A stretch of DNA of 64,000 bases from Myxococcota bacterium (GTDB lineage: Bacteria > Myxococcota > XYA12-FULL-58-9 > JABJBS01), in assembly GCA_036339465.1 (NCBI GenBank), contig JAYZAY010000062.1, positions 1-64,000 on the forward strand, read 5' to 3'. The position numbers and the translations under genes are program-made. This document shows positions 43,400-54,046 of this stretch, piece by piece (position 1 is the first letter of the stretch; the number at the start of each line of letters is the position of its first letter). The notes under the pieces are model-generated. The model was not told where the DNA came from, made no database searches, and worked only from the letters and a program-made list of their open reading frames with translations.

Positions 43400-44038
43400 G
43401 TGGGTATTTTTCAGACCGATTCCTATGATACTGCCGCCCGGGATTTGATTGAAATCGGCCGTTTCTTTCACGGTTTTGGCTGGGCTGCGGCAACGAGTGG
43501 CAACTATTCAATTCGCATTGCCGATGACCAGGTGGTGATGACCGTTTCCGGTTGCCACAAAGGCGAATTAACGCCAAAAGATTTTTTGGTTGTAGATCTC
43601 GATGGAAGGCCCTTGGCGGTTTGGCGTGATGAGGACACAAGTTCTGCAGAGGCGCGACTCCATTTGCAGGTGTATCAAAACAAGCCCCAGGTCTGCTCGG
43701 TCCTCCATTGTCACACGGTCGCAAGTACGGCGATTTCACGACTCCATGATCATAGTCTGGAATTGGCTGATTACGAGGTCTTTAAGGCTTTCCCACAATT
43801 CAAAACCCATGAGCACGATATTTCGATTCCCATTGTGGGCAATAGCCAGGATATGGATATTTTGTCTCAGGTCGTGAGTGAGCGTTGGAAAGAAATCGAT
43901 GCGGTAAGTTCCTATTTGATCCGAGGTCACGGGTTATATACGTGGGGAGATTCTCCAATGGGTGCACGCAATCAGGTTGAAGCGCTAGATTTTCTATTTC
44001 AGAGTTGGTTATTGGAAAAACGGAGCAGAAGGAAATGA
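43400..44038 (+). CDS. mtnB: Methylthioribulose-1-phosphate dehydratase
   Basis: GWAAATSGNYS, SAEARLH, VLHCH, YLIRGHGLYTWG; adjacent mtnD and mtnC. Confidence 0.93.
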   Translation: MGIFQTDSYDTAARDLIEIGRFFHGFGWAAATSGNYSIRIADDQVVMTVSGCHKGELTPKDFLVVDLDGRPLAVWRDEDTSSAEARLHLQVYQNKPQVCSVLHCHTVASTAISRLHDHSLELADYEVFKAFPQFKTHEHDISIPIVGNSQDMDILSQVVSERWKEIDAVSSYLIRGHGLYTWGDSPMGARNQVEALDFLFQSWLLEKRSRRK

Positions 44039-44577
44039 CGTGTTTAAAGGTTTGGGAGCATCCTAGTGTTAGGTTGAAAGAGGAAACCACCGACTCCGAA
44101 GAAATTCAAAAAATACTGAGTGGTTATGGTGTCCGGTTTGAGCGGTGGGAAGCCTCCGCCTCTCTTGCCGATGATGCGACCCAAGATGATATATTGGCGG
44201 CCTACGCTCAGAGCGTGAAACGTCTGAAATCTGAGTCGGGTTTTCAATCGGCCGATGTGGTGAGCTTGACACCCGACCACCCAGACAAAGTTGCATTCCG
44301 GGAGAAATTTCTGAGTGAACATATTCATTCCGATGATGAGATTAGGTTTTTTGTGGATGGTAAGGGACTATTTTGTATGCACTTTGACAATCAAGTTGTC
44401 ACAGTATTGTGTGAAGGTGGCGATTTGATCAGTGTGCCTGCGAATATCAAGCATTGGTTTGACATGGGACCGGAACCGTTTTTTAAGTGCATTCGATTGT
44501 TTACAACTCCTGAAGGTTGGGTCGCTGATTTTACCGGTGATTCAATTGCAGATTCTTACCCAAAGCTTGGATCATGA
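44035..44577 (+). CDS. mtnD: Acireductone dioxygenase
   Basis: GVRFERW, FLSEHIHSDDEIRFFVDG, GDLISVPANIKHWFDMG. Confidence 0.95.
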   Translation: MTCLKVWEHPSVRLKEETTDSEEIQKILSGYGVRFERWEASASLADDATQDDILAAYAQSVKRLKSESGFQSADVVSLTPDHPDKVAFREKFLSEHIHSDDEIRFFVDGKGLFCMHFDNQVVTVLCEGGDLISVPANIKHWFDMGPEPFFKCIRLFTTPEGWVADFTGDSIADSYPKLGS

Positions 44578-45251
44578 ACGTTTCTGGCATTGTGACAGAT
44601 ATTGAGGGAACGACGACCTCCATTTCCTTTGTTTACGACATCCTTTTTCCTTATGCACGTAGGCACCTGTCGGATTTTGTAATGGCCCACCATGGGCGTG
44701 AAGCGGTGGCAAAGGTATTGGAGGAGATTCAAGAAATTTCAGGTGCTTCGGAGCCGAAAGCCGCAGTCGATGTTTTACTCGGGTGGATGGATGCCGATCA
44801 AAAGGTGACCCCATTAAAGTCTCTCCAAGGTATGATTTGGCGAGATGCTTATGAGTCGGGCCAAATCAAGGGGCATGTTTATGAGGATGCTTATAAGGAG
44901 CTTAGGTCGTGGCGCGATGGCGGTAAGTTTCTCGCGGTCTATTCTTCAGGTTCTGTTGCGGCCCAGAAACTTCTTTTTGGCTACAGTGACTTTGGAGATA
45001 TGAGACCTCTTTTTCGTGATTATTTTGACACGACCACAGGTCCCAAGAGAGAAGCTCAATCCTATGGAAAAATTGCTACCGCTTTGGGGGAGGATGCGGG
45101 TTCGTTACTCTTTCTTTCCGACGTTGAGGCAGAGCTTGATGCTGCATTTGAGGCAGGATTTCAGGTGGTCCAATTGATTCGTGAAACCTCAATGACCCCA
45201 AGTGCAAAGTACCGTTGGGTGCGTTCTTTTTCCGAGATTGAATTACCCTAA
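44574..45251 (+). CDS. mtnC: Enolase-phosphatase E1 (acireductone synthase)
   Basis: TDIEGTTTSISFV, LKSLQGMIW, YSSGSVAAQKLLF, LFLSD. Confidence 0.95.
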   Translation: MNVSGIVTDIEGTTTSISFVYDILFPYARRHLSDFVMAHHGREAVAKVLEEIQEISGASEPKAAVDVLLGWMDADQKVTPLKSLQGMIWRDAYESGQIKGHVYEDAYKELRSWRDGGKFLAVYSSGSVAAQKLLFGYSDFGDMRPLFRDYFDTTTGPKREAQSYGKIATALGEDAGSLLFLSDVEAELDAAFEAGFQVVQLIRETSMTPSAKYRWVRSFSEIELP

Positions 45252-45263
45252 CAAGGGATGTGC

Positions 45264-46022
45264 TTAAGGAATGAGTTGACTGAAAGCGCTCGCAATTTCT
45301 TGAGTGGTTGGATGGAATTTAATGCTCAAAGCCAGGCATATCTGAGAACCAAAATAGAGGGGAGATCCCCATAGCTTGTTTCCAAAGCCAGCGTTGGCGA
45401 AACGGTTTCGAGCCACAGAAATATCGGATAAAAGAAAACCAACCGTGCCGACACCGATCAGCACATTGCGGCTCGAAACACTGGTGCCGATTCCCAGGCT
45501 TACCATGAGACAAATCGCAACCAAATAGGCCATCACGGGGATCTTTAGGTTTTTGTCAATTTGGGACCACAGGCCGCTAACGATATGGTAGCCAAGGCTA
45601 AGGAGGGCCACGAAGCAGAGAAGGCTGGCCAATACATTGGGCTTTCGGTAAAAGAATGCATAGCTATAGACGACATGTGCAAAGAGGAACGCAAAGATCC
45701 CCAGAAAGAAGGCGAATTTATTTTTGGGGATTAAGAGCACATCTCCGAGCCAAGATAAAATAAGTCCGATAATGATCCATGTCCCATAAAACGAATGGAC
45801 GTTGGTGCATAGAAACCCCAGTGCTACAAATCCGGTGGCTGCAAGGGGTTTAAACAGCCATTTTCTGGATTGGTTGTTGTCGTATTCAGCCTTAAGGAGC
45901 AGGGCCACAGAGAGCATGGTGGTTATGACGAGGAAGAGAATCCAACCGTTTTCCTGGCCTATATTTTCAAGCGACACTTTGCTTCCTTTGGGTAAATGTT
46001 CGGCGGTGCTCTTCAATGGCAA
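45264..46022 (-). CDS. YhhN/lysoplasmalogenase family membrane protein
   Basis: FKPLA, SWLGDVLL, FLFAHVVY, FLLSDISVA, LYFGSQ; start uncertain. Confidence 0.88.
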   Translation of the reverse strand: MPLKSTAEHLPKGSKVSLENIGQENGWILFLVITTMLSVALLLKAEYDNNQSRKWLFKPLAATGFVALGFLCTNVHSFYGTWIIIGLILSWLGDVLLIPKNKFAFFLGIFAFLFAHVVYSYAFFYRKPNVLASLLCFVALLSLGYHIVSGLWSQIDKNLKIPVMAYLVAICLMVSLGIGTSVSSRNVLIGVGTVGFLLSDISVARNRFANAGFGNKLWGSPLYFGSQICLALSIKFHPTTQEIASAFSQLIP

Positions 46023-46917
46023 CTTGGATGGTGGTTTTATGGATTTCTACGATATCGTCAATGGATTTGGCATAACCTCCCGACATGGTCAGTGCAAGGG
46101 GCAGTTGTCGGGCGAAACACCAGTTAAAAACTTTTTCATCTCGTTTGCGCAAACCATTTTTGGACAGTTTGAGGTGTCCAAATTGGTCGTATTCATACGG
46201 GTCAGCTCCGGCGAGGTAAAAGACGAAATCCATCTGGAATCTGCTTTCAATGATGGCCAAGCTTTCTTCCAGAGCTTGGAGATAGGGTTCGTCTGTGGTG
46301 TTGGAGGGGAGGGGAAAGTCTAAATCGCTCTCTTCTTTATGATAAGGGAAGTTATCGTTGCCGTGGATCGAGAATGAAAAGATGGAGTCATCCCCCTGAG
46401 TGAGTTCCGCGGTTCCATTGCCTTGATGGACATCAAGATCGATGATGAGAATGTTCTTGATTGCGAATTTTGCTTGAATCACTTTCGCCGCAACCATCAC
46501 ATCGTTGAACACACAAAAACCTTCTCCGCGATCCGCAAAGGCATGATGCGTTCCCCCAGCGAGGTTTATACTGAGTCCGTCTTCAATGGCTGTGGTAGCA
46601 GCTTCAATGGTTGCTCCCACAGACCGCCGAGAACGTTCGACCATTTCAGGAGACCAAGGGAATCCGATGCGCCGCATTTCTCGAGGCGTTAGTGTTCCGT
46701 GAATCACACGTTGAACGTAGTCATGGGTATGAACTTTTTGTAGGTCTTCATCGCTCGCTGCTTGGGGGATAAAGAATTGGTGGTCGGGTAGAATTCTTTG
46801 GGCTAGAAGTGCTTGCCTGAGCCGGAGGTATTTTTCCATTGGGAACTTATGTTCTTTGGGTAGGGGTAGAACAAAGTTGTCGGTGTAATAAGCTTTGACC
46901 AAAGGTTTCTCTATCAT
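45967..46917 (-). CDS. Zn-dependent histone deacetylase family protein (HDAC11/class IV-like)
   Basis: HKFPMEKY, NLAGGTHHA, GFCVFND, DLDVHQGNGT, GADP...D, GGY. Confidence 0.95.
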   Translation of the reverse strand: MIEKPLVKAYYTDNFVLPLPKEHKFPMEKYLRLRQALLAQRILPDHQFFIPQAASDEDLQKVHTHDYVQRVIHGTLTPREMRRIGFPWSPEMVERSRRSVGATIEAATTAIEDGLSINLAGGTHHAFADRGEGFCVFNDVMVAAKVIQAKFAIKNILIIDLDVHQGNGTAELTQGDDSIFSFSIHGNDNFPYHKEESDLDFPLPSNTTDEPYLQALEESLAIIESRFQMDFVFYLAGADPYEYDQFGHLKLSKNGLRKRDEKVFNWCFARQLPLALTMSGGYAKSIDDIVEIHKTTIQVAIEEHRRTFTQRKQSVA

Positions 46918-47121
46918 GGTTTGCTCTTCTAATTATTTTGCATGGGGATTAGCCCGAAATAGGGACTATGGTCTACTATATGAGGGTTTAGTTTGAAAAT
47001 AGGGTTTAATTCAAGGTGGAAACGATTGCTCCTCATGGCAAGATCTGAGAAAAGAAATCAATTGAATCAGCAGGATGAAGGAAACGGAAGACACAAGCGA
47101 CTAAGTTGCGCAAGCTAGGAG

Positions 47122-48060
47122 ATGCAAATGGCTTTGGATGAGGGCACTCGCCAAGAGATTATCAATACTATCGGTACCGATAATGTGGTTTTGTTTATGA
47201 AGGGGTCGAAAGGGATGCCTCAATGTGGATTTTCTGCCACGGTGGTACAGATCCTCAATGAATTGGTCGAGGACTACGCCACGGTGGATGTCCTTTCGGA
47301 TCCGGCTCTTCGCGAGGGGATCAAGGCCTATTCAAATTGGCCGACCATTCCACAACTCTATATTAAAGGTGAGTTCATTGGTGGTTGTGACATCGTTAAA
47401 CAGATGTATGAGTCTGGAGACCTAGAAGGAAAACTCGATGTTGTATTGGAGCCGGTTGAGCCACCCTCAATCACGGTGACGGATGCTGGTGCGAAAGCCT
47501 TGAATGACGCCATAGAGGCAAACCCCGACGGGCCTTCCTCTTTTCATTTGGTCGTAAACGAACATTTTGAACCGGGTTTACAGTTTGGTCCTGAATCGGC
47601 ACGAAAGCTCAAAGTGGAAGCAAATGGGGTGACGTTCTTCATTGATCGATCCAGTGCGCCAAGAGCAGAGGGTATTACGATTGATTTTATGGAGGGTGCC
47701 GACGGTAGTGGCTTTAAGATAGAGAACCCTAATGCCCCGAAGCCTGTTGAACAGCTGAGTGTTGGGGAAATCAAGGCGAAACTCGATGCAAAAGAGTCTT
47801 TTGTTTTTATTGATGTTAGAGGGGAAGATGAACGATTGACTGCTACCATTTCGGGAACCCAACTCTTAGACGATGGGTTTCGAGAAGAGCTCACCAAGAT
47901 GGACCGTGATACCTATCTCGTTTTTCATTGCCACCATGGTGGTCGTAGTCAACAAGCGGCTGACCATTATCGCAACGAGGGTTTTTCACGTGTTGCCAAC
48001 ATGGTGGGGGGAATTGACGCATGGTCTCTAGAGATAGATTCGGATATTCCACGCTACTAA
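47122..48060 (+). CDS. grxD: Monothiol glutaredoxin (CGFS) fused to HesB/IscA-like and rhodanese domains
   Basis: PQCGFS, WPTIPQLY, GGCDI; middle ITVTD...IDFMEG..GSGFKIENPNAP; C-terminal DVR, HCHHGGRS, GGIDAWS. Confidence 0.9.
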   Translation: MQMALDEGTRQEIINTIGTDNVVLFMKGSKGMPQCGFSATVVQILNELVEDYATVDVLSDPALREGIKAYSNWPTIPQLYIKGEFIGGCDIVKQMYESGDLEGKLDVVLEPVEPPSITVTDAGAKALNDAIEANPDGPSSFHLVVNEHFEPGLQFGPESARKLKVEANGVTFFIDRSSAPRAEGITIDFMEGADGSGFKIENPNAPKPVEQLSVGEIKAKLDAKESFVFIDVRGEDERLTATISGTQLLDDGFREELTKMDRDTYLVFHCHHGGRSQQAADHYRNEGFSRVANMVGGIDAWSLEIDSDIPRY

Positions 48061-49152
48061 TACGTGCTCCATAGACATTGACACTTACTTCGCTTCCTAG
48101 CTTCTTTACTCCGGCCTTTACCTTTGTGCTGGTTGAGCTCCAAGCTCAAGCTACTTGCCTGCTCGTTTCCGTTAGGTCTGAGGTCTTCGGCGCGACCTAT
48201 GCCGCCATCCCCCCCCCCCTGAATGGGAGACCGTATTCAATGACTCTCGTGGTTGGTTTGGTCGGGCGAATCAGAACGCCATGGACCTGAGGGTGTAGAG
48301 GTTTACCAATTGTATGAAGAATTTTCTCAGTGCTCTCCTCTGGCTGAAGCACGGGGCATTTAGAATGGTGCTCTTTCGTGCGTTGCTTACTCTTGTCATA
48401 CTTTTGAGGGAACTTGGTTTCTACACCCTCCCACACTGATGCCACCTATCCTTATTTTGGCGTCGGATTTACCTTCTTTAGCCCACAATCGTTTTGCGTA
48501 CGGTAATGGGAAAAACCATTGTGGAATATGCACCGCATCTTTCGGGCTTCCGAGGGTCTGGCATGGTGGCAGAGAAGCATTGTCGACCAATATTGTATAA
48601 CCCCGTTGTTGGCGGTACTCCGGTTGCGTTGATATGCGCATTGCAGGGCACAGGTGTTTTGCATGGCAAGGGTATTGACGTAAATCGAGCGATGAGAACC
48701 TCGCTCTTCACTTTGGGGATATTCAAGATACTCTCTAGCATCTGGGTGGCAAAAGACCTCTTCGGATTTTTTCATTGGGATCTGCACAACTGCTTTGTTG
48801 ATGTCGACCGATGGATTGGCAATGGGAACTGTTTGTGTTTTTTTAGTGGGCGTCGGCAAGTTGCTCTTTCGGTATTCAAAGTGCAACAGCAGGAATACAC
48901 GTCAGATTTGGCCAAAAACGAACTTTTTATTGATAAAACATAGAAAAATGACCCTTCAATGTCAGTTGAAGTCCATTCTCTTCTTTCCTCTGAATTGTCT
49001 CATGGTTTAAAAGGGCTTGATTATGTGGATAGCGTATTTCTGTGGTGTCTGCGTTGCGAAGCAATAATGCGTCGTACGTTGATGGCATGTTGAGTGGAAT
49101 CGTTATTTGCTCACCCATTACAACGTGACGATGATTAACTCGGAGGAAGAAA

Positions 49153-49437
49153 ATGGCCGCAAAGAAAGCAGCATCTAAGAAAGCAGCACCTAAGAAAGCA
49201 GCACCTAAGAAAGCAGCGCCTAAGAAAAAGCCAGCAGCTAAGAAAAAACCAGCAGTTCAGGACATGGTTCTTGTTGTAAGTAAGACCAAGGACGCACTTA
49301 AGGCGAGTGGCTGTAATGTTGCGGGCGATGCTCTTGATGGGTTGAATGCGCTCGTGCACCAGCACATTGCACAAGCGGCCAAGCGAGCTGAAGCCAATGG
49401 TCGTAAGACCATTCGTGCTCACGATTTCGTTGCCTAA
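49153..49437 (+). CDS. Bacterial histone-fold protein with Lys/Ala/Pro-rich N-terminal tail
   Basis: GGAGG RBS; core VLVVSKTKDALK...GDALDGLN...AAKRAEANGRKTIRAHDF (RxTxxxxD); own terminator. Confidence 0.92.
   Translation: MAAKKAASKKAAPKKAAPKKAAPKKKPAAKKKPAVQDMVLVVSKTKDALKASGCNVAGDALDGLNALVHQHIAQAAKRAEANGRKTIRAHDFVA
49162..49227 (+). repeat. 15-bp coding repeat (KKAA[S/P])x4 in the histone tail
   Basis: AAGAAAGCAGCA(T/C)CT-type units, one with GCG. Confidence 0.9.
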
Positions 49438-49462
49438 TAGGTTTCGAAATAGTGTTATCGGT

Positions 49463-49491
49463 GAAAAGGGCGACTTCGGTCGCCCTTTTTC
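49463..49491 (+). terminator. Rho-independent terminator
   Basis: AAAAGGGCGAC-TTCG-GTCGCCCTTTTT: perfect stem, UUCG loop, U-tract. Confidence 0.93.
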
Positions 49492-49533
49492 GTTTGTTCC
49501 ATGGGCAGAACGTGATTGTATACGGTCTTAGAT

Positions 49534-50556
49534 ATGCTTCTAAGGGATTTAACAAAATTAAGTGGGTGGTTTATTGCATCTCACGCCGCAAGAATTTCTG
49601 AAGAGCCGCTTTCTCTCTTGATAGCGGGGCAGCAACTCGCTTTTTACCGAATGAAAGGTAAGGTGGTTGCGGTTGAAGACCGCTGCCCTCATCGAAATGT
49701 TCCCATTTCACGGGGAAAAAATCACGGTGAGACGATTCAGTGTGGGTATCATGGATGGGAATTTGATTCTAAGGGCCATTGCGTGAGGATACCGGGCATG
49801 GTGGGGGAAATTCCCGAACCAAGACCTCATCTCAAGAATTTTCCTGTATTTGAGAAAGACAACTTTGTGTGGGTGTATGTGGGAGCTGATGCGCCTGAGG
49901 GTCAGCCTTATGCTTGGCGACATTTGGGCGAAGATGGTTATGTGAATTTCTTTTACGATTACCGCTTTAAAGGGGATCTTGTTTCTACGGCAGAAAATAT
50001 TCTCGATGTGCCCCATACTGCTTTTCTGCATAAAGGGCTTTTTCGTAGTGGGGCTTCCAACCGAATTGAAGTTGAAGTCCGACGTGGGTCTGGCATGGTT
50101 GAGGCGGAATATATGGGTGAACCGAGGCCAGAAGGGATTATGGGGCGGTTGTTGGCTCCTGGTGGTGGCGACGTCGTCCATGTCGACCGCTTTGTTTCTC
50201 CTTGTGTGGCCGAGGTGGAATACAGACTTGGGGAACACCGGCATATCTTGGTGGCCAGCGCCCTTACACCCATATCGACCGAAGAGACTCATATGTATGC
50301 AATGGCAGCCTTTCGGGTACCGAAAGTGCTGGCACCGATACTGCAACTTTTTAAGCCCATTGCCTTAAAGGTTGTGGCGCAAGATGCTGAGATGTTGGCT
50401 CTCCAAAAAGAGAATTTGGAGAGATTTGGCAAGCCGCAACTACGCTCAACCTATCTTGATGTTTTGGGGACTGAAATTTCCCGCCTAGTCCATGGTGAGA
50501 ATAGAGACCAAGAGGGTGAAATACAGGTGTTACGGCGGGTTGAAATGGAAATATAG
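49534..50556 (+). CDS. Rieske non-heme iron oxygenase alpha subunit (VanA-like)
   Basis: DRCPHR...QCGYHGWEF; ENILDVPHTAFLH; QD motif. Confidence 0.93.
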   Translation: MLLRDLTKLSGWFIASHAARISEEPLSLLIAGQQLAFYRMKGKVVAVEDRCPHRNVPISRGKNHGETIQCGYHGWEFDSKGHCVRIPGMVGEIPEPRPHLKNFPVFEKDNFVWVYVGADAPEGQPYAWRHLGEDGYVNFFYDYRFKGDLVSTAENILDVPHTAFLHKGLFRSGASNRIEVEVRRGSGMVEAEYMGEPRPEGIMGRLLAPGGGDVVHVDRFVSPCVAEVEYRLGEHRHILVASALTPISTEETHMYAMAAFRVPKVLAPILQLFKPIALKVVAQDAEMLALQKENLERFGKPQLRSTYLDVLGTEISRLVHGENRDQEGEIQVLRRVEMEI

Positions 50557-50611
50557 AAGGTCTCAACTTCGAAACTCTTGCAAATTTAAGGTGTTGCTAT
50601 AAGGCCCTTTT

Positions 50612-51478
50612 ATGTCTTTGAATGGCAAATATCCGTCGGTTGCGGTGATTATTCCCACTTTTAATAGGGCGACGCTATTGGAGCGAGCGGTTCGTTCAGT
50701 GATCGCGCAAACGGTTTTACCGGCCGAAATTTGGGTCATCGATGATGGTTCGACCGATGAGACCGAGGGTATGCTCCGGGCCAATTTTCCAGGGGTTCAT
50801 TATCGATATCAGGAGAATAGGGGCGTTAGTGCAGCGCGTAACATGGGCATTGAGGAAGCTGAATCAGACTGGATCGCACTTTTGGATTCCGATGATGCGT
50901 GGCAGCCGGAAAAATTGGAAAGACAGTTGAGGGCGCTTTCCAATAACCCTGAGGTCCTCTTTCTCCATACGGATGAAATATGGATGAGGCGTGGTAAACG
51001 GGTTAATCCGATGAACAAACATGCCAAACCCAATGGGCGTGTATTTAAAGCTTCTTTAGCTTTATGTGCGATGTCTCCCTCAAGTGCTTTGATTCACAGG
51101 CGTGTATTTGATGATGTTGGGCTATTCGATGAGTCACTGCCTGCTTGTGAAGACTACGATTTGTGGTTACGGATTTCTTCGAAGTACGATGTGCTTTTGG
51201 TTCCCGAGCCTTTGGTGGTGAAATATGGAGGGCATGAGGATCAGCTTTCGAGGAAACATTGGGGCATGGACCGGTTTAGGGTGAAAGCCCTTGAAAAAAT
51301 ACTGAAGGTGGGGGCGTGGTCTTTGACGCTCGATGAGAGAACTTTGGCTTTAAAGATTCTCCGGGAAAAACTAACGATTTTACGTAATGGTGCAGCCAAA
51401 CGAGGCAATGATGAACAAAGCTGTTTCTATGAGACGAAATTAGCTGCGTGGAATCTAAAGGCCACTGAGTCAAGGTAA
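50612..51478 (+). CDS. Glycosyltransferase family 2
   Basis: VIIPTFNR, IDDGSTD, GVSAARNMG, LDSDD, CEDYDLWLR. Confidence 0.95.
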   Translation: MSLNGKYPSVAVIIPTFNRATLLERAVRSVIAQTVLPAEIWVIDDGSTDETEGMLRANFPGVHYRYQENRGVSAARNMGIEEAESDWIALLDSDDAWQPEKLERQLRALSNNPEVLFLHTDEIWMRRGKRVNPMNKHAKPNGRVFKASLALCAMSPSSALIHRRVFDDVGLFDESLPACEDYDLWLRISSKYDVLLVPEPLVVKYGGHEDQLSRKHWGMDRFRVKALEKILKVGAWSLTLDERTLALKILREKLTILRNGAAKRGNDEQSCFYETKLAAWNLKATESR

Positions 51479-51486
51479 TACACACG

Positions 51487-52332
51487 ATGGCTGAATGCGG
51501 AGCAATATATTGGGTCGTCGCGTTGTCTGCGGAAGCAAAATGCATTGTAAAATATTTTGGTTTAAAGCGGACTCAAGGGCGACTGCCGTTTCCTCTTTAT
51601 CAAGATTCGGATGGAAGCAATCAATTGGTTGTTTCAGGGGCAGGGCGGATGGCCGCTGCTGCTGCCACGGCCTACCTGGCGGGTCGCAACACCGACAGCG
51701 ATACCGCAGGCTGGATTAATTTGGGAATTGCAGGTCACAAAGATTTTGAACTTGGTCATTTGGTAAGAGCAAATCGGGTTTCTGCTACCAATGAAAAACG
51801 TAGCTGGTATCCTGTTCTCCCTTTCAAGTCGTCAATTCAAGGGTATTCGGCACTCACGGTTGATTTACCCACAAAAGGATATCCCACCGAAGCGGTGGTC
51901 GAAATGGAGGCGTATGGTTTCTTAGGGGTGACCACATTGGTTGCTGGAGTGGAGCTTGGCCATTGTCTGAAGGTGATTTCAGACAATGAATCTCATCATT
52001 GGGAGGAGTTGGATCGTTTCAAGATTGAAGAACTCATGGCGAAATCCTGGGATGAGGTGGTGAGTTTTTCGGAGAAAATCCGGGAGATCTCCAGAGAAGA
52101 AAAATCATTGGTGGTAGAAAACCCGCGTTTGAAGGAAATGAGTTCTCGCTTTCGTTTGAGTGTTACCCAAAAAAACCGGCTTCGGCATGTCTTAACTCGG
52201 GTGGATGTTCTGGTTTTGGAGGGATTGTCTTTTCCGGAGAGCCTATTAGATGAAGCTTCAAACGGTAAAGATTTACTACGAAAACTTGAGGCTTGGGCCG
52301 ACGAGGCTTTTTCTATGAGTGACATGCTATGA
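51487..52332 (+). CDS. Nucleoside phosphorylase/MTA-SAH nucleosidase-fold protein
   Basis: VALSAEA, SGAG, INLGIAG, VEMEAYG, KVISD. Confidence 0.8.
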   Translation: MAECGAIYWVVALSAEAKCIVKYFGLKRTQGRLPFPLYQDSDGSNQLVVSGAGRMAAAAATAYLAGRNTDSDTAGWINLGIAGHKDFELGHLVRANRVSATNEKRSWYPVLPFKSSIQGYSALTVDLPTKGYPTEAVVEMEAYGFLGVTTLVAGVELGHCLKVISDNESHHWEELDRFKIEELMAKSWDEVVSFSEKIREISREEKSLVVENPRLKEMSSRFRLSVTQKNRLRHVLTRVDVLVLEGLSFPESLLDEASNGKDLLRKLEAWADEAFSMSDML

Positions 52333-53339
52333 TCGACACGATCTATATTGAAGATGAGGTTCGGAATCATCCACGAACAAGGTCAATTCTAGAGCGCTAT
52401 AAAGGGGCTGACATAGTTTCTTGTGAGCGTTACACTGAAATTTTCAATCGTCGTTCTCAGAACTTCAGGATTCAAAAAAAGAATCCAGCACTTATTATTG
52501 CGCGTAAACATGGTGCTAAAGTTCTTCCTACACCGGAGGGCTATGGGGTAGGTGGAAAAAACAACTTCTATTTTTCTCATATGCTCAACTGTCTCTATGA
52601 TTGTCGCTATTGTTTTCTACAAGGCATGTATCGATCTGCGAACTATGTTTGGTTTGTGAATTACGAGGATTTTGGTGACGAAATCCTCAAGGCAGTGAAG
52701 CAGAATCAAGGTTCAGGGGAGGATTCGTATTTCTTTTCAGGCTATGACTGCGACTCTTTAGCCATGGAGGATCTCACCGGATTTGTTGATTGGGCGATTC
52801 CCTTCTTTTCCCAAGTTCAAGGCGCTTATCTTGAATTGCGCACCAAAAGCGTCAACTTAAAAGCACTCAAAAAGCACGCTCCTATGGAGCATTGTATTGT
52901 GGCTTTTAGTTTAACTCCCGATGCGGTTGCCAAAAAAGTTGAGCATGGTGCGCCGAAAGTTGAAAGTCGAATTAAAGCGATGTCTCAGCTCATAGAACTT
53001 GGTTGGAAAGTGGGAATTCGGTTTGACCCTTTAATTCAGCACCCCAATTTTGAGGCAAGTTACGAGGGCTTGTTTCGTGATGTTTTCGGAGCCCTGCCGG
53101 CGGATCGTATCCATTCGGTTAGCTTTGGTCCCATGCGTTTTCCCAAGACCATGTACGACCGAATTTTAAAGCTATATCCCAAGGAAAAAATGTTGCATGC
53201 GCCTATGGAAAACTATGATGGGATGATCTCCTATGGGCGGGAAAAGGAAGTGGCCATCATCAATCATTGCCAGAAGGCCCTTGGGGAGCATATTGATACC
53301 ACGAAGTTTTTTCGATGTATGCCGGGAGAAATGCCGTGA
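52329..53339 (+). CDS. Spore photoproduct lyase-like radical SAM protein
   Basis: NCLYDCRYCFLQG (CxxxCxxC), SGYDCDSLA, LELRTKS, AFSLTP, GIRFDP. Confidence 0.9.
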   Translation: MIDTIYIEDEVRNHPRTRSILERYKGADIVSCERYTEIFNRRSQNFRIQKKNPALIIARKHGAKVLPTPEGYGVGGKNNFYFSHMLNCLYDCRYCFLQGMYRSANYVWFVNYEDFGDEILKAVKQNQGSGEDSYFFSGYDCDSLAMEDLTGFVDWAIPFFSQVQGAYLELRTKSVNLKALKKHAPMEHCIVAFSLTPDAVAKKVEHGAPKVESRIKAMSQLIELGWKVGIRFDPLIQHPNFEASYEGLFRDVFGALPADRIHSVSFGPMRFPKTMYDRILKLYPKEKMLHAPMENYDGMISYGREKEVAIINHCQKALGEHIDTTKFFRCMPGEMP

Positions 53340-54046
53340 GACTTGAAGGTAAAGCTTATTTGGTCACCGGGAGTTCTACGGGTATTGGTAAAGCGACTAC
53401 CCAAAATCTTTTAAGGGAAGGGGCCCGAGTGGTTGGGGTTGCTCGCAGAGAAGTTGAGGTCACCAAAGACGAGAATTACGTTCACATAAGATTTGATTTG
53501 AGTCATGTCGAAAAAATTCCGGAATTGATTGAGAAGGTGTGGAATCTAGAACCGGATATCTGTGGCGTGATTGATTGCGCAGGGGCGGGCGTTTTTGGTT
53601 CCATTGAAGAATTTTCTTTGGTGCAAATTCAGCGTTATCTCGAATTCAATTTGATTTATCACGCGATTTTGGCCCGTTATATCTTACCGCGTTTTAAGAA
53701 AGCAGGGTGCGGGGATTGGCTATGGGTTGGTTCTGAATCTGCCTTAAGGGCGGGGAAATTTGGTAGTCTCTATAGTGCGGCTAAATTTGGAGTTCGGGGA
53801 ATGCTCCAATCCTTAAGAGCTGAATGTGCAGGCAGTGGAATTAGAATCATGATGGTTCATCCGGGGATGGTTCGTACCCCTTTTTTTGACGATTTGCGAT
53901 TTGAACCAGGTCCCTCGGAAGAACACGCTCTAGAGGCGGACGATGTTGCTGATTCGTTGTTAACAATGTTGACACAGAATTCTCGGGTTTGGACAGACGA
54001 ACTGATGTTGAATGCTCGCCACCATGTGGTTAAGAAAAGTAAGTAA
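53336..54046 (+). CDS. Short-chain dehydrogenase/reductase
   Basis: VTGSSTGIG, YSAAKFG (YxxxK), HPGMVRT; GTGA overlap with the upstream gene. Confidence 0.93.
   Translation: MRLEGKAYLVTGSSTGIGKATTQNLLREGARVVGVARREVEVTKDENYVHIRFDLSHVEKIPELIEKVWNLEPDICGVIDCAGAGVFGSIEEFSLVQIQRYLEFNLIYHAILARYILPRFKKAGCGDWLWVGSESALRAGKFGSLYSAAKFGVRGMLQSLRAECAGSGIRIMMVHPGMVRTPFFDDLRFEPGPSEEHALEADDVADSLLTMLTQNSRVWTDELMLNARHHVVKKSK

Follow-up and report, generated by a model that had tools for sequence, protein, structure and literature searches.

The window, by which we mean the whole stretch of DNA that was analysed (64,000 nt), contains a short gene whose product very probably joins a lysine-rich N-terminal tail to a predicted bacterial histone-fold core. 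The features at this locus and upstream of it are the following (AF2, AlphaFold2):

45967-46917, minus strand: gene of the Hist_deacetyl family (PF00850, E 7.4e-57), 2.2 kb upstream of the histone gene
47122-48060, plus strand: fusion of glutaredoxin, Fe-S-biosynthesis (HesB/IscA-like) and rhodanese domains, 312 aa, from domain matches
49142..49146, plus strand: Shine-Dalgarno (SD) sequence GGAGG, separated from ATG 49153 by a 6-nt spacer, read directly
49153..49437, plus strand: histone gene, 94 codons and a stop, from the ORF list; ATG start, 94 aa
49153..49257, plus strand: Lys/Ala/Pro-rich N-terminal tail, residues 1-35, from composition, AF2 and the tails of orthologues
49162..49245, plus strand: in-frame 15-nt tandem repeat AAGAAAGCAGCACCT encoding KKAAP units, from Tandem Repeats Finder
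49264..49434, plus strand: histone-fold core, residues 38-94, from AF2, Foldseek, phmmer and profile matches
49463..49490, plus strand: intrinsic-terminator-like hairpin with a UUCG loop and a T run, from a consensus scan and RNA folding

An ATG-initiated frame of 94 codons with a strong ribosome-binding site, a UUCG terminator of its own and a repetitive tail holding 14 Lys within residues 1-33 had been described in a sequence-only reading of this DNA, and each of these elements was recovered. The peptide can be written as M-AA-KKAAS-(KKAAP)x3-KKKPAA-KKKPA-VQD, followed by a 57-aa core with the C-terminus RAEANGRKTIRAHDFVA. The hairpin begins 26 nt past the stop codon; its GC-rich stem GGGCGAC-UUCG-GUCGCCC reaches 12 pairs when extended and folds with −19.7 kcal/mol (z −2.6; 5 of 200 shuffles were equal or better). 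As the consensus scan found two terminator-like sites in the 1-kb region with 1.0 expected, it is the position of the hairpin and not the count that supports its reading as a terminator. An Rfam scan of 44000-54000 gave a chance-level match to PhrS (E 0.84), placed on this same hairpin, as its sole match, and no tRNA genes were found in the same surroundings. No sigma-70 promoter was obtained by consensus scan on the plus strand of 48700-49152, and a looser scan upstream of the histone gene returned weak candidates only. Among the 23 sequencing runs listed as carrying the locus, none is an RNA run. The gene is present as a single copy in the 4.17-Mb, 92.8%-complete assembly. An antisense ORF of 95 aa (49135..49422) mirrors the Lys-codon repeats of the histone tail.

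The histone gene is preceded by YhhN (−), the Hist_deacetyl gene (−), the glutaredoxin/Fe-S/rhodanese fusion (+) and a spacer of 1.1 kb, and it is followed by genes for a Rieske oxygenase and a GT2 glycosyltransferase, an unknown gene and a spore-photoproduct-lyase-like gene. The fusion protein shows 59% identity to its sister-genus counterpart. The spacer (48061-49152) is unique in the genome, while the same two genes lie about 280 bp apart in the sister genus; it contains no convincing ORF (the two longest are without a Pfam match), no Rfam match and no tRNA, and none of the five other genomes of the family matched its DNA. The 11-mer TGGTTTAAAAG is located at 49003-49013, 150 nt before the histone ATG, and occurs once in the window (0.08 expected). 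The sister-genus orthologues L002 and L003 have it as well, about 158 nt ahead of their ATG and in spacers that are otherwise dissimilar; it may mark a site bound by a regulator or the −10 region of a promoter, with a long leader. The genome holds three HU/IHF-family genes, so the histone, which may be abundant, is not necessarily its chief nucleoid protein.

Structure prediction with AlphaFold2 and an alignment of 38 relatives gave a mean pLDDT of 81 for the whole protein and 93-95 for the core, in which α1 spans residues 42-51, α2 58-81 and a short α3 89-93. In a Foldseek comparison with the PDB, the first match was HLp of Leptospira perolatii (TMt 0.95-0.96, rmsd 0.7 Å, 44-45% identity, 45% when counted over 56 columns), further matches were the archaeal histone HTkC (TMt 0.87-0.89) and HBb, also known as Bd0055, of Bdellovibrio bacteriovorus (TMt 0.84-0.88, rmsd 1.4-1.5 Å), and nucleosomal archaeal histones were far lower (HMfA, 0.58). 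The predicted helices and the Foldseek ranking thus identify the core as an α3-truncated histone fold, which we regard as established at the level of a structural model. The sequence searches agree in their order. With the single sequence, four PDB chains were matched, namely HLp (9qt0, E 3.2e-9, query residues 34-92), HBb (8cmp, 1.2e-4, and 8fvx, 1.3e-4) and HTkC (9f2c, 3.9e-3). With the profile of 38 relatives the values became 1.8e-18 for HLp, 9.5e-12 for HBb and 9.1e-10 for HTkC, followed by HmvA, a Methanopyrus histone, Asgard histones, NF-YB and HMfA (0.15). The signature RxTxxxxD, which had been pointed out earlier, is present as R84-K-T86-I-R-A-H-D91 and includes the RD clamp R84/D91; R84, K85, T86 and D91 are invariant in the 38 relatives. 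The likeness to Leptospira-type histones and to Bd0055, named in that reading, is borne out with HLp in first place and HBb in second place by both sequence and fold. Domain libraries were of little help in this assignment. No significant match to the protein was found in Pfam or NCBIfam, and neither DUF1931 (PF09123) nor CBFD_NFYB_HMF (PF00808) is listed for it even at E≤10. Among the 38 relatives, PF00808 was touched by one (E 0.0012) and PF09123 by none. In the PDB, HLp and HBb were deposited under names that use the labels DUF1931 and CBFD_NFYB_HMF.

Residues of the subfamily signature were compared through the single-sequence PDB alignment, in which HLp residue n corresponds to residue n+29 of the present protein. 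Excerpts of Hu et al. (2025, PMC12701072) describe contacts of R49, S52 and N53 against F63, T61 and R55 in the tetramer of HLp, a bacterial face-to-face (FtF) α3 histone (PDB 9QT0/9QT1/9QT2), and they give R49, N53 and R55 as conserved in tetrameric bacterial FtF histones. By the above relation these three map to R78, N82 and R84; the alignment of 38 relatives shows no variation at N82 and R84 and almost none at R78. In place of S52 and T61 of the HLp interface the protein has A81 and H90, and V93 and A94 follow the Phe equivalent to the C-terminal interface Phe of HLp; with these two exchanges and the two-residue C-terminal extension, the tetramer interface may differ in detail. Nine DNA-contact residues are named from HLp-DNA crystals in the same excerpts, and six of them are identical here (S43, K44, K46, K50, G58 and T86), while T56 is changed to K85. 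Judged from its sequence the protein resembles the FtF references more than it does histones of the dimer or nucleosomal type, and the ranking of the predicted fold agrees.

HLp and the present protein share, besides the fold, the RD clamp and the tetramer-signature residues. They differ in the N-terminus, as the studied form of HLp (63 aa) has ~7 disordered N-terminal residues and the tail here is of 35 aa with a charge of +14. Moreover, Leptospira is without HU, unlike this genome, and the neighbourhood here is devoid of SMC and MAP genes. HBb (PDB 8CMP, 8FVX, 9EZZ) shares the α3-truncated fold, the RKT loop and the α1 lysines; it is dimeric and, in agreement with the sequence-only reading, which had described both references as lacking a long basic tail, it has no long tail. 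In the excerpts concerned with them, both HLp and HBb bind DNA, HLp wraps about 60 bp and HBb is a DNA-bending dimer. The HTkC preprint, in the part concerned, names HLp as the only other characterised FtF histone.

The tail (residues 1-35) contains 14 Lys, 13 Ala, 5 Pro and no acidic residue, corresponding to a net charge of +14 and a pI of 11.1. Its blocks have a pLDDT of 55-65 and no secondary structure in the AF2 model, and it is predicted to be disordered. Tandem Repeats Finder reported 5.4 copies of AAGAAAGCAGCACCT with 87% matches. Arrays with 15- or 18-nt periods, or with multiples of them, were observed in the tail-coding part of 10 of the 13 long-tailed genes examined; in the remaining three (L006, L051 and L088) no tandem repeats were detected in the tail-coding DNA. 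The repeat unit varies by lineage, being KKAAP here and KKKAPA in the sister genus. The new observation is that in-frame tandem repeats specific to the lineage make up these tails, upon a MAKK...E-core scaffold that is itself conserved; this points to a tail length that is labile in evolution. A tentative and rather doubtful extension is that the tail is a self-contained module of the linker-histone kind. Slippage in its in-frame 15/18-nt repeats would set its length, and lineages, possibly also strains, would tune nucleoid compaction by lengthening or shortening it; the differing units KKAAP and KKKAPA would then be the trace of repeated independent expansions. Metagenome contigs from four DNA runs of four studies, all marine or seawater, were inspected for the array. 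Pieces identical to the flank and to the core were present in all four, and all the contigs end at the array. The repeat array itself appeared in these metagenomes as a pile of short contigs, probably from other organisms.

The tail had also been called H1/AlgP-like. The likeness in composition holds, but a family relationship does not, since no significant family model for the tail (H1-like, AlgP or Hc2) was found in Pfam or NCBIfam. The best NCBIfam match to the protein, 'histone H1-like' NF038053, scores 7.5 bits (E 4.3) where 80 are required, and Pfam HC2 did not match this protein and was touched by 2 of the 38 relatives. The C-terminal domain of eukaryotic H1 is a comparable Lys/Ala/Pro basic tail for which polyanion binding is expected, and chlamydial Hc2 is similar in its Lys/Ala/Pro repeat composition. 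The C-terminal region of MDP1/HupB and the PAKKA repeats of M. smegmatis Ku, as portrayed in excerpts of the work on them, resemble the tail in Lys/Ala/Pro composition, disorder and expected binding of polyanions. Nevertheless, there is no homology to the tails of MDP1/HupB, Ku, H1 or Hc2, and in contrast to them the tail here is N-terminal and joined to a histone fold.

Relatives are numerous. A word-indexed protein search returned 172 proteins at E≤1e-3, and an exhaustive search of cluster representatives returned 270 matches, 48 of them at E≤1e-10; on the evidence of these homologues, the ORF is no chance feature. Among 270 listed proteins the RxTxxxxD motif occurs once in 220, twice (doublets) in 27 and, by the search pattern used, not at all in 23. 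The tail statistics cover 120 listed of the 172 proteins and 150 listed of the 270 representatives, the tail being defined as everything before the position aligned to Met38, at a fixed offset of 46 residues from the motif and with database starts as given. A single core was recognisable in 110 of the 120 listed proteins, with a median tail of 18 aa. Among these 110, the tail is net basic in 95 and net acidic in 11, it has at least 20 aa with a net charge of at least +8 in 43, and it is ≤3 aa in 2 and ≥37 aa in 6, including the present protein. In the representatives, 89 of the 150 listed were recognisable (64 basic tails, 22 of the long and strongly basic kind, 16 acidic, 13 of ≤3 aa). By this count over the sequences most relatives carry basic tails, from 6 to about 60 aa, and the tail here, about 35-37 aa, is at the long end of their range. 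A pattern search with RAxANGRKT[VI] in one genome per species gave at least 600 stretches; tblastn confirmed 568 of these, and 80 were retained. The kept loci bear the labels Bdellovibrionales/Bdellovibrionota, Acidobacteriota, Myxococcota, Krumholzibacteriota, Elusimicrobiota, Planctomycetota and Verrucomicrobiales. By a rough, heuristic start-site script with some spurious rows, the shortest of their tails is MAKKME (6 aa) and the longest has about 38 aa, and nearly all open with MAKK or MAAKK. The record labels of the nearest named loci disagree (L031, Bdellovibrionales; L056, Myxococcota). A homologue of 86 aa (P0109) with the source name Bacteriovorax sp. BSW11_IV is a relative from a cultured lineage.

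Two other architectures were met among the relatives. Natural doublets (P0012, P0024, P0052 and P0060; 115-132 aa) consist of two FtF-like folds joined in a single chain, without basic tails; doublets are among the best-scoring relatives, and one of them is the sole relative with a precomputed DUF1931 label. At three loci in genomes of the same phylum (L023, L025 and L030) the histone fold comes after a Cys-rich N-terminal region of 85-104 aa with CxxC motifs, and on sequence grounds these may belong to the ZZ-type histone class of Schwab et al.

Basic tails are described as frequent in bacterial FtF histones and termed H3-like in the excerpts of Schwab et al. (2024, PMC11390915), and the present protein, like most of its relatives, matches that description and shows no difference in kind. 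Most bacterial singlets are without long tails (Hocher et al. 2023). A full-text literature search found no experimental study of any bacterial histone tail.

Several other readings of the locus have to be weighed, and one of them concerns the start site. Only the 57-aa core may be made, from Met38 (49264), the Lys-rich stretch then being an untranslated leader or at most appearing in a minor isoform. Met is common at position 38 across the family, public gene calls give the tail-less 57-aa form for this gene (P0002) and for its nearest relative (P0026, the core of L002), and HLp provides a precedent, as its authors, in the excerpts of Hu et al. (2025, PMC12701072), took the shorter, 63-aa form of two annotated ones on SD grounds. 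However, the strong SD sequence precedes ATG 49153, while the sole SD-like word before Met38, AGGA, ends 1 nt from its ATG, the poor spacing that had been remarked on before. All eight orthologues compared (L001-L008) have an SD-like word 3-8 nt ahead of the start codon of the tail, and none of the four with an ATG at the core boundary has one before that ATG. In L004, L005, L007 and L008 the boundary is without ATG, GTG or TTG, the codon there being AAT, AAC, GTA or GTC, so that an internal start is impossible in these. Moreover, indels have left the frame open and rich in Lys in every orthologue, those that separate the tails of two sister-genus species preserve it, and the periods of the tandem repeats observed in tail-coding DNA are all divisible by 3. 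Tail length was also followed across the family, as had been proposed. Orthologues are present in four of its five other genomes (no match in G002, 94% complete); all begin with MAAKKK and continue in an open frame with basic tails of 32-36 aa, and the sequence upstream of that Met is not conserved among the four. An exclusive start at Met38 appears quite improbable, and the additional tail-less isoform considered in the sequence-only reading is unlikely. Start codons and SD placement indicate that the tail is very probably translated from ATG 49153, and the 57-aa records P0002 and P0026 are read as gene-caller truncations. Neither of the two outcomes said to overturn the sequence-only reading, a core that does not model as a histone fold or a start at Met38 alone, was seen. 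A different reading of the core is that the protein acts as an HBb-like dimer, which bends or coats DNA and forms no wrapping tetramer. In sequence as well as in fold, HBb ranks directly after HLp, and the exchanges at A81 and H90 together with the C-terminal extension affect the very interface in question. Against this, bacterial dimer histones are marked in the excerpts of Schwab et al. (2024, PMC11390915) by the loss of the conserved R48 and N52 of the FtF dimer-dimer contact; HBb has S and D at the positions aligned to R78 and N82, whereas both residues are present and conserved here. Mutating the equivalent Arg in HTkC gives a dimer-like phenotype, according to the HTkC preprint in the part concerned, and the predicted fold is nearer to HLp than to HBb by half the rmsd or less. 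We regard a purely dimeric mode of action as unlikely.

The remaining alternatives concern the function. The tail might serve mainly as a regulatory platform, with lysines that are acetylated and then deacetylated by the upstream Hist_deacetyl enzyme to tune compaction. The PF00850 gene is indeed close by, and the order of YhhN, deacetylase, glutaredoxin-rhodanese, histone and GT2 genes recurs in the sister genus, and only there (L002 = L031, one contig). Nevertheless, the deacetylase was found within the flanks of only 2 of 109 loci, both on that same contig. The family's other genus (L056, flanks of 5 kb) lacks it near the histone gene, as do the other named loci. A deacetylase-histone linkage as a general feature was therefore rejected, and its limitation to the sister genus gives no support for a functional pairing. 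In addition, the deacetylase gene is read from the opposite strand and separated from the histone gene by a further gene, and no acetyltransferase genes occur near the histone gene. Enzymes of the Hist_deacetyl family act on many non-histone substrates, as is generally known. Acetylation as the principal role of the tail thus seems improbable to us. Finally, the product may not be a chromatin protein at all, the tail and the small helical core instead binding RNA, ribosomes or polyphosphate. Lys/Ala/Pro-type tails rich in Lys and Ala do bind any polyanion, but six of the nine DNA contacts of HLp are kept, the RKT loop and the RD clamp are invariant, and the nearest solved relatives are DNA-binding proteins in the excerpts mentioned above; this possibility is very remote.

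Taken together, the probable reading is that of a nucleoid-associated FtF histone which is tetrameric, wraps DNA and carries a translated, disordered polycation tail. In this mechanism the 57-residue core would pair into a handshake dimer, and two dimers would join as a ring-like tetramer, as we infer from the conserved interface residues. DNA would then wrap the tetramer without sequence specificity, as for HLp. The 35-residue tail, starting from the upstream ATG, would be a disordered polycation contributing +14 per chain and +56 per tetramer. From its composition and by analogy with other basic tails, it should aid DNA affinity and condensation and may bridge; it would raise the non-specific affinity for DNA, neutralise the charge of DNA that is wrapped or acts as linker, and promote bridging or compaction, a role likened to that of H1 C-terminal domains and of the PAKKA-type tails of mycobacterial HupB/MDP1. 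Being built from in-frame 15-nt repeats, the tail would probably also change its length through them.

Bacterial histones have been recognised only recently, and the two characterised ones, HBb and HLp, are both essentially tail-less. The gene is a good long-tailed example of a class already in print, and as a discovery the advance is incremental. Its practical point is that, with Pfam and NCBIfam missing the family and gene callers sometimes dropping the tail, such tails are probably under-counted in protein databases. The tail here is long, its start site is well supported and relatives exist in cultured lineages, so that the gene could be used as a clean case for testing whether a prokaryotic histone tail has an influence on the wrapping of DNA, on compaction or on regulation.
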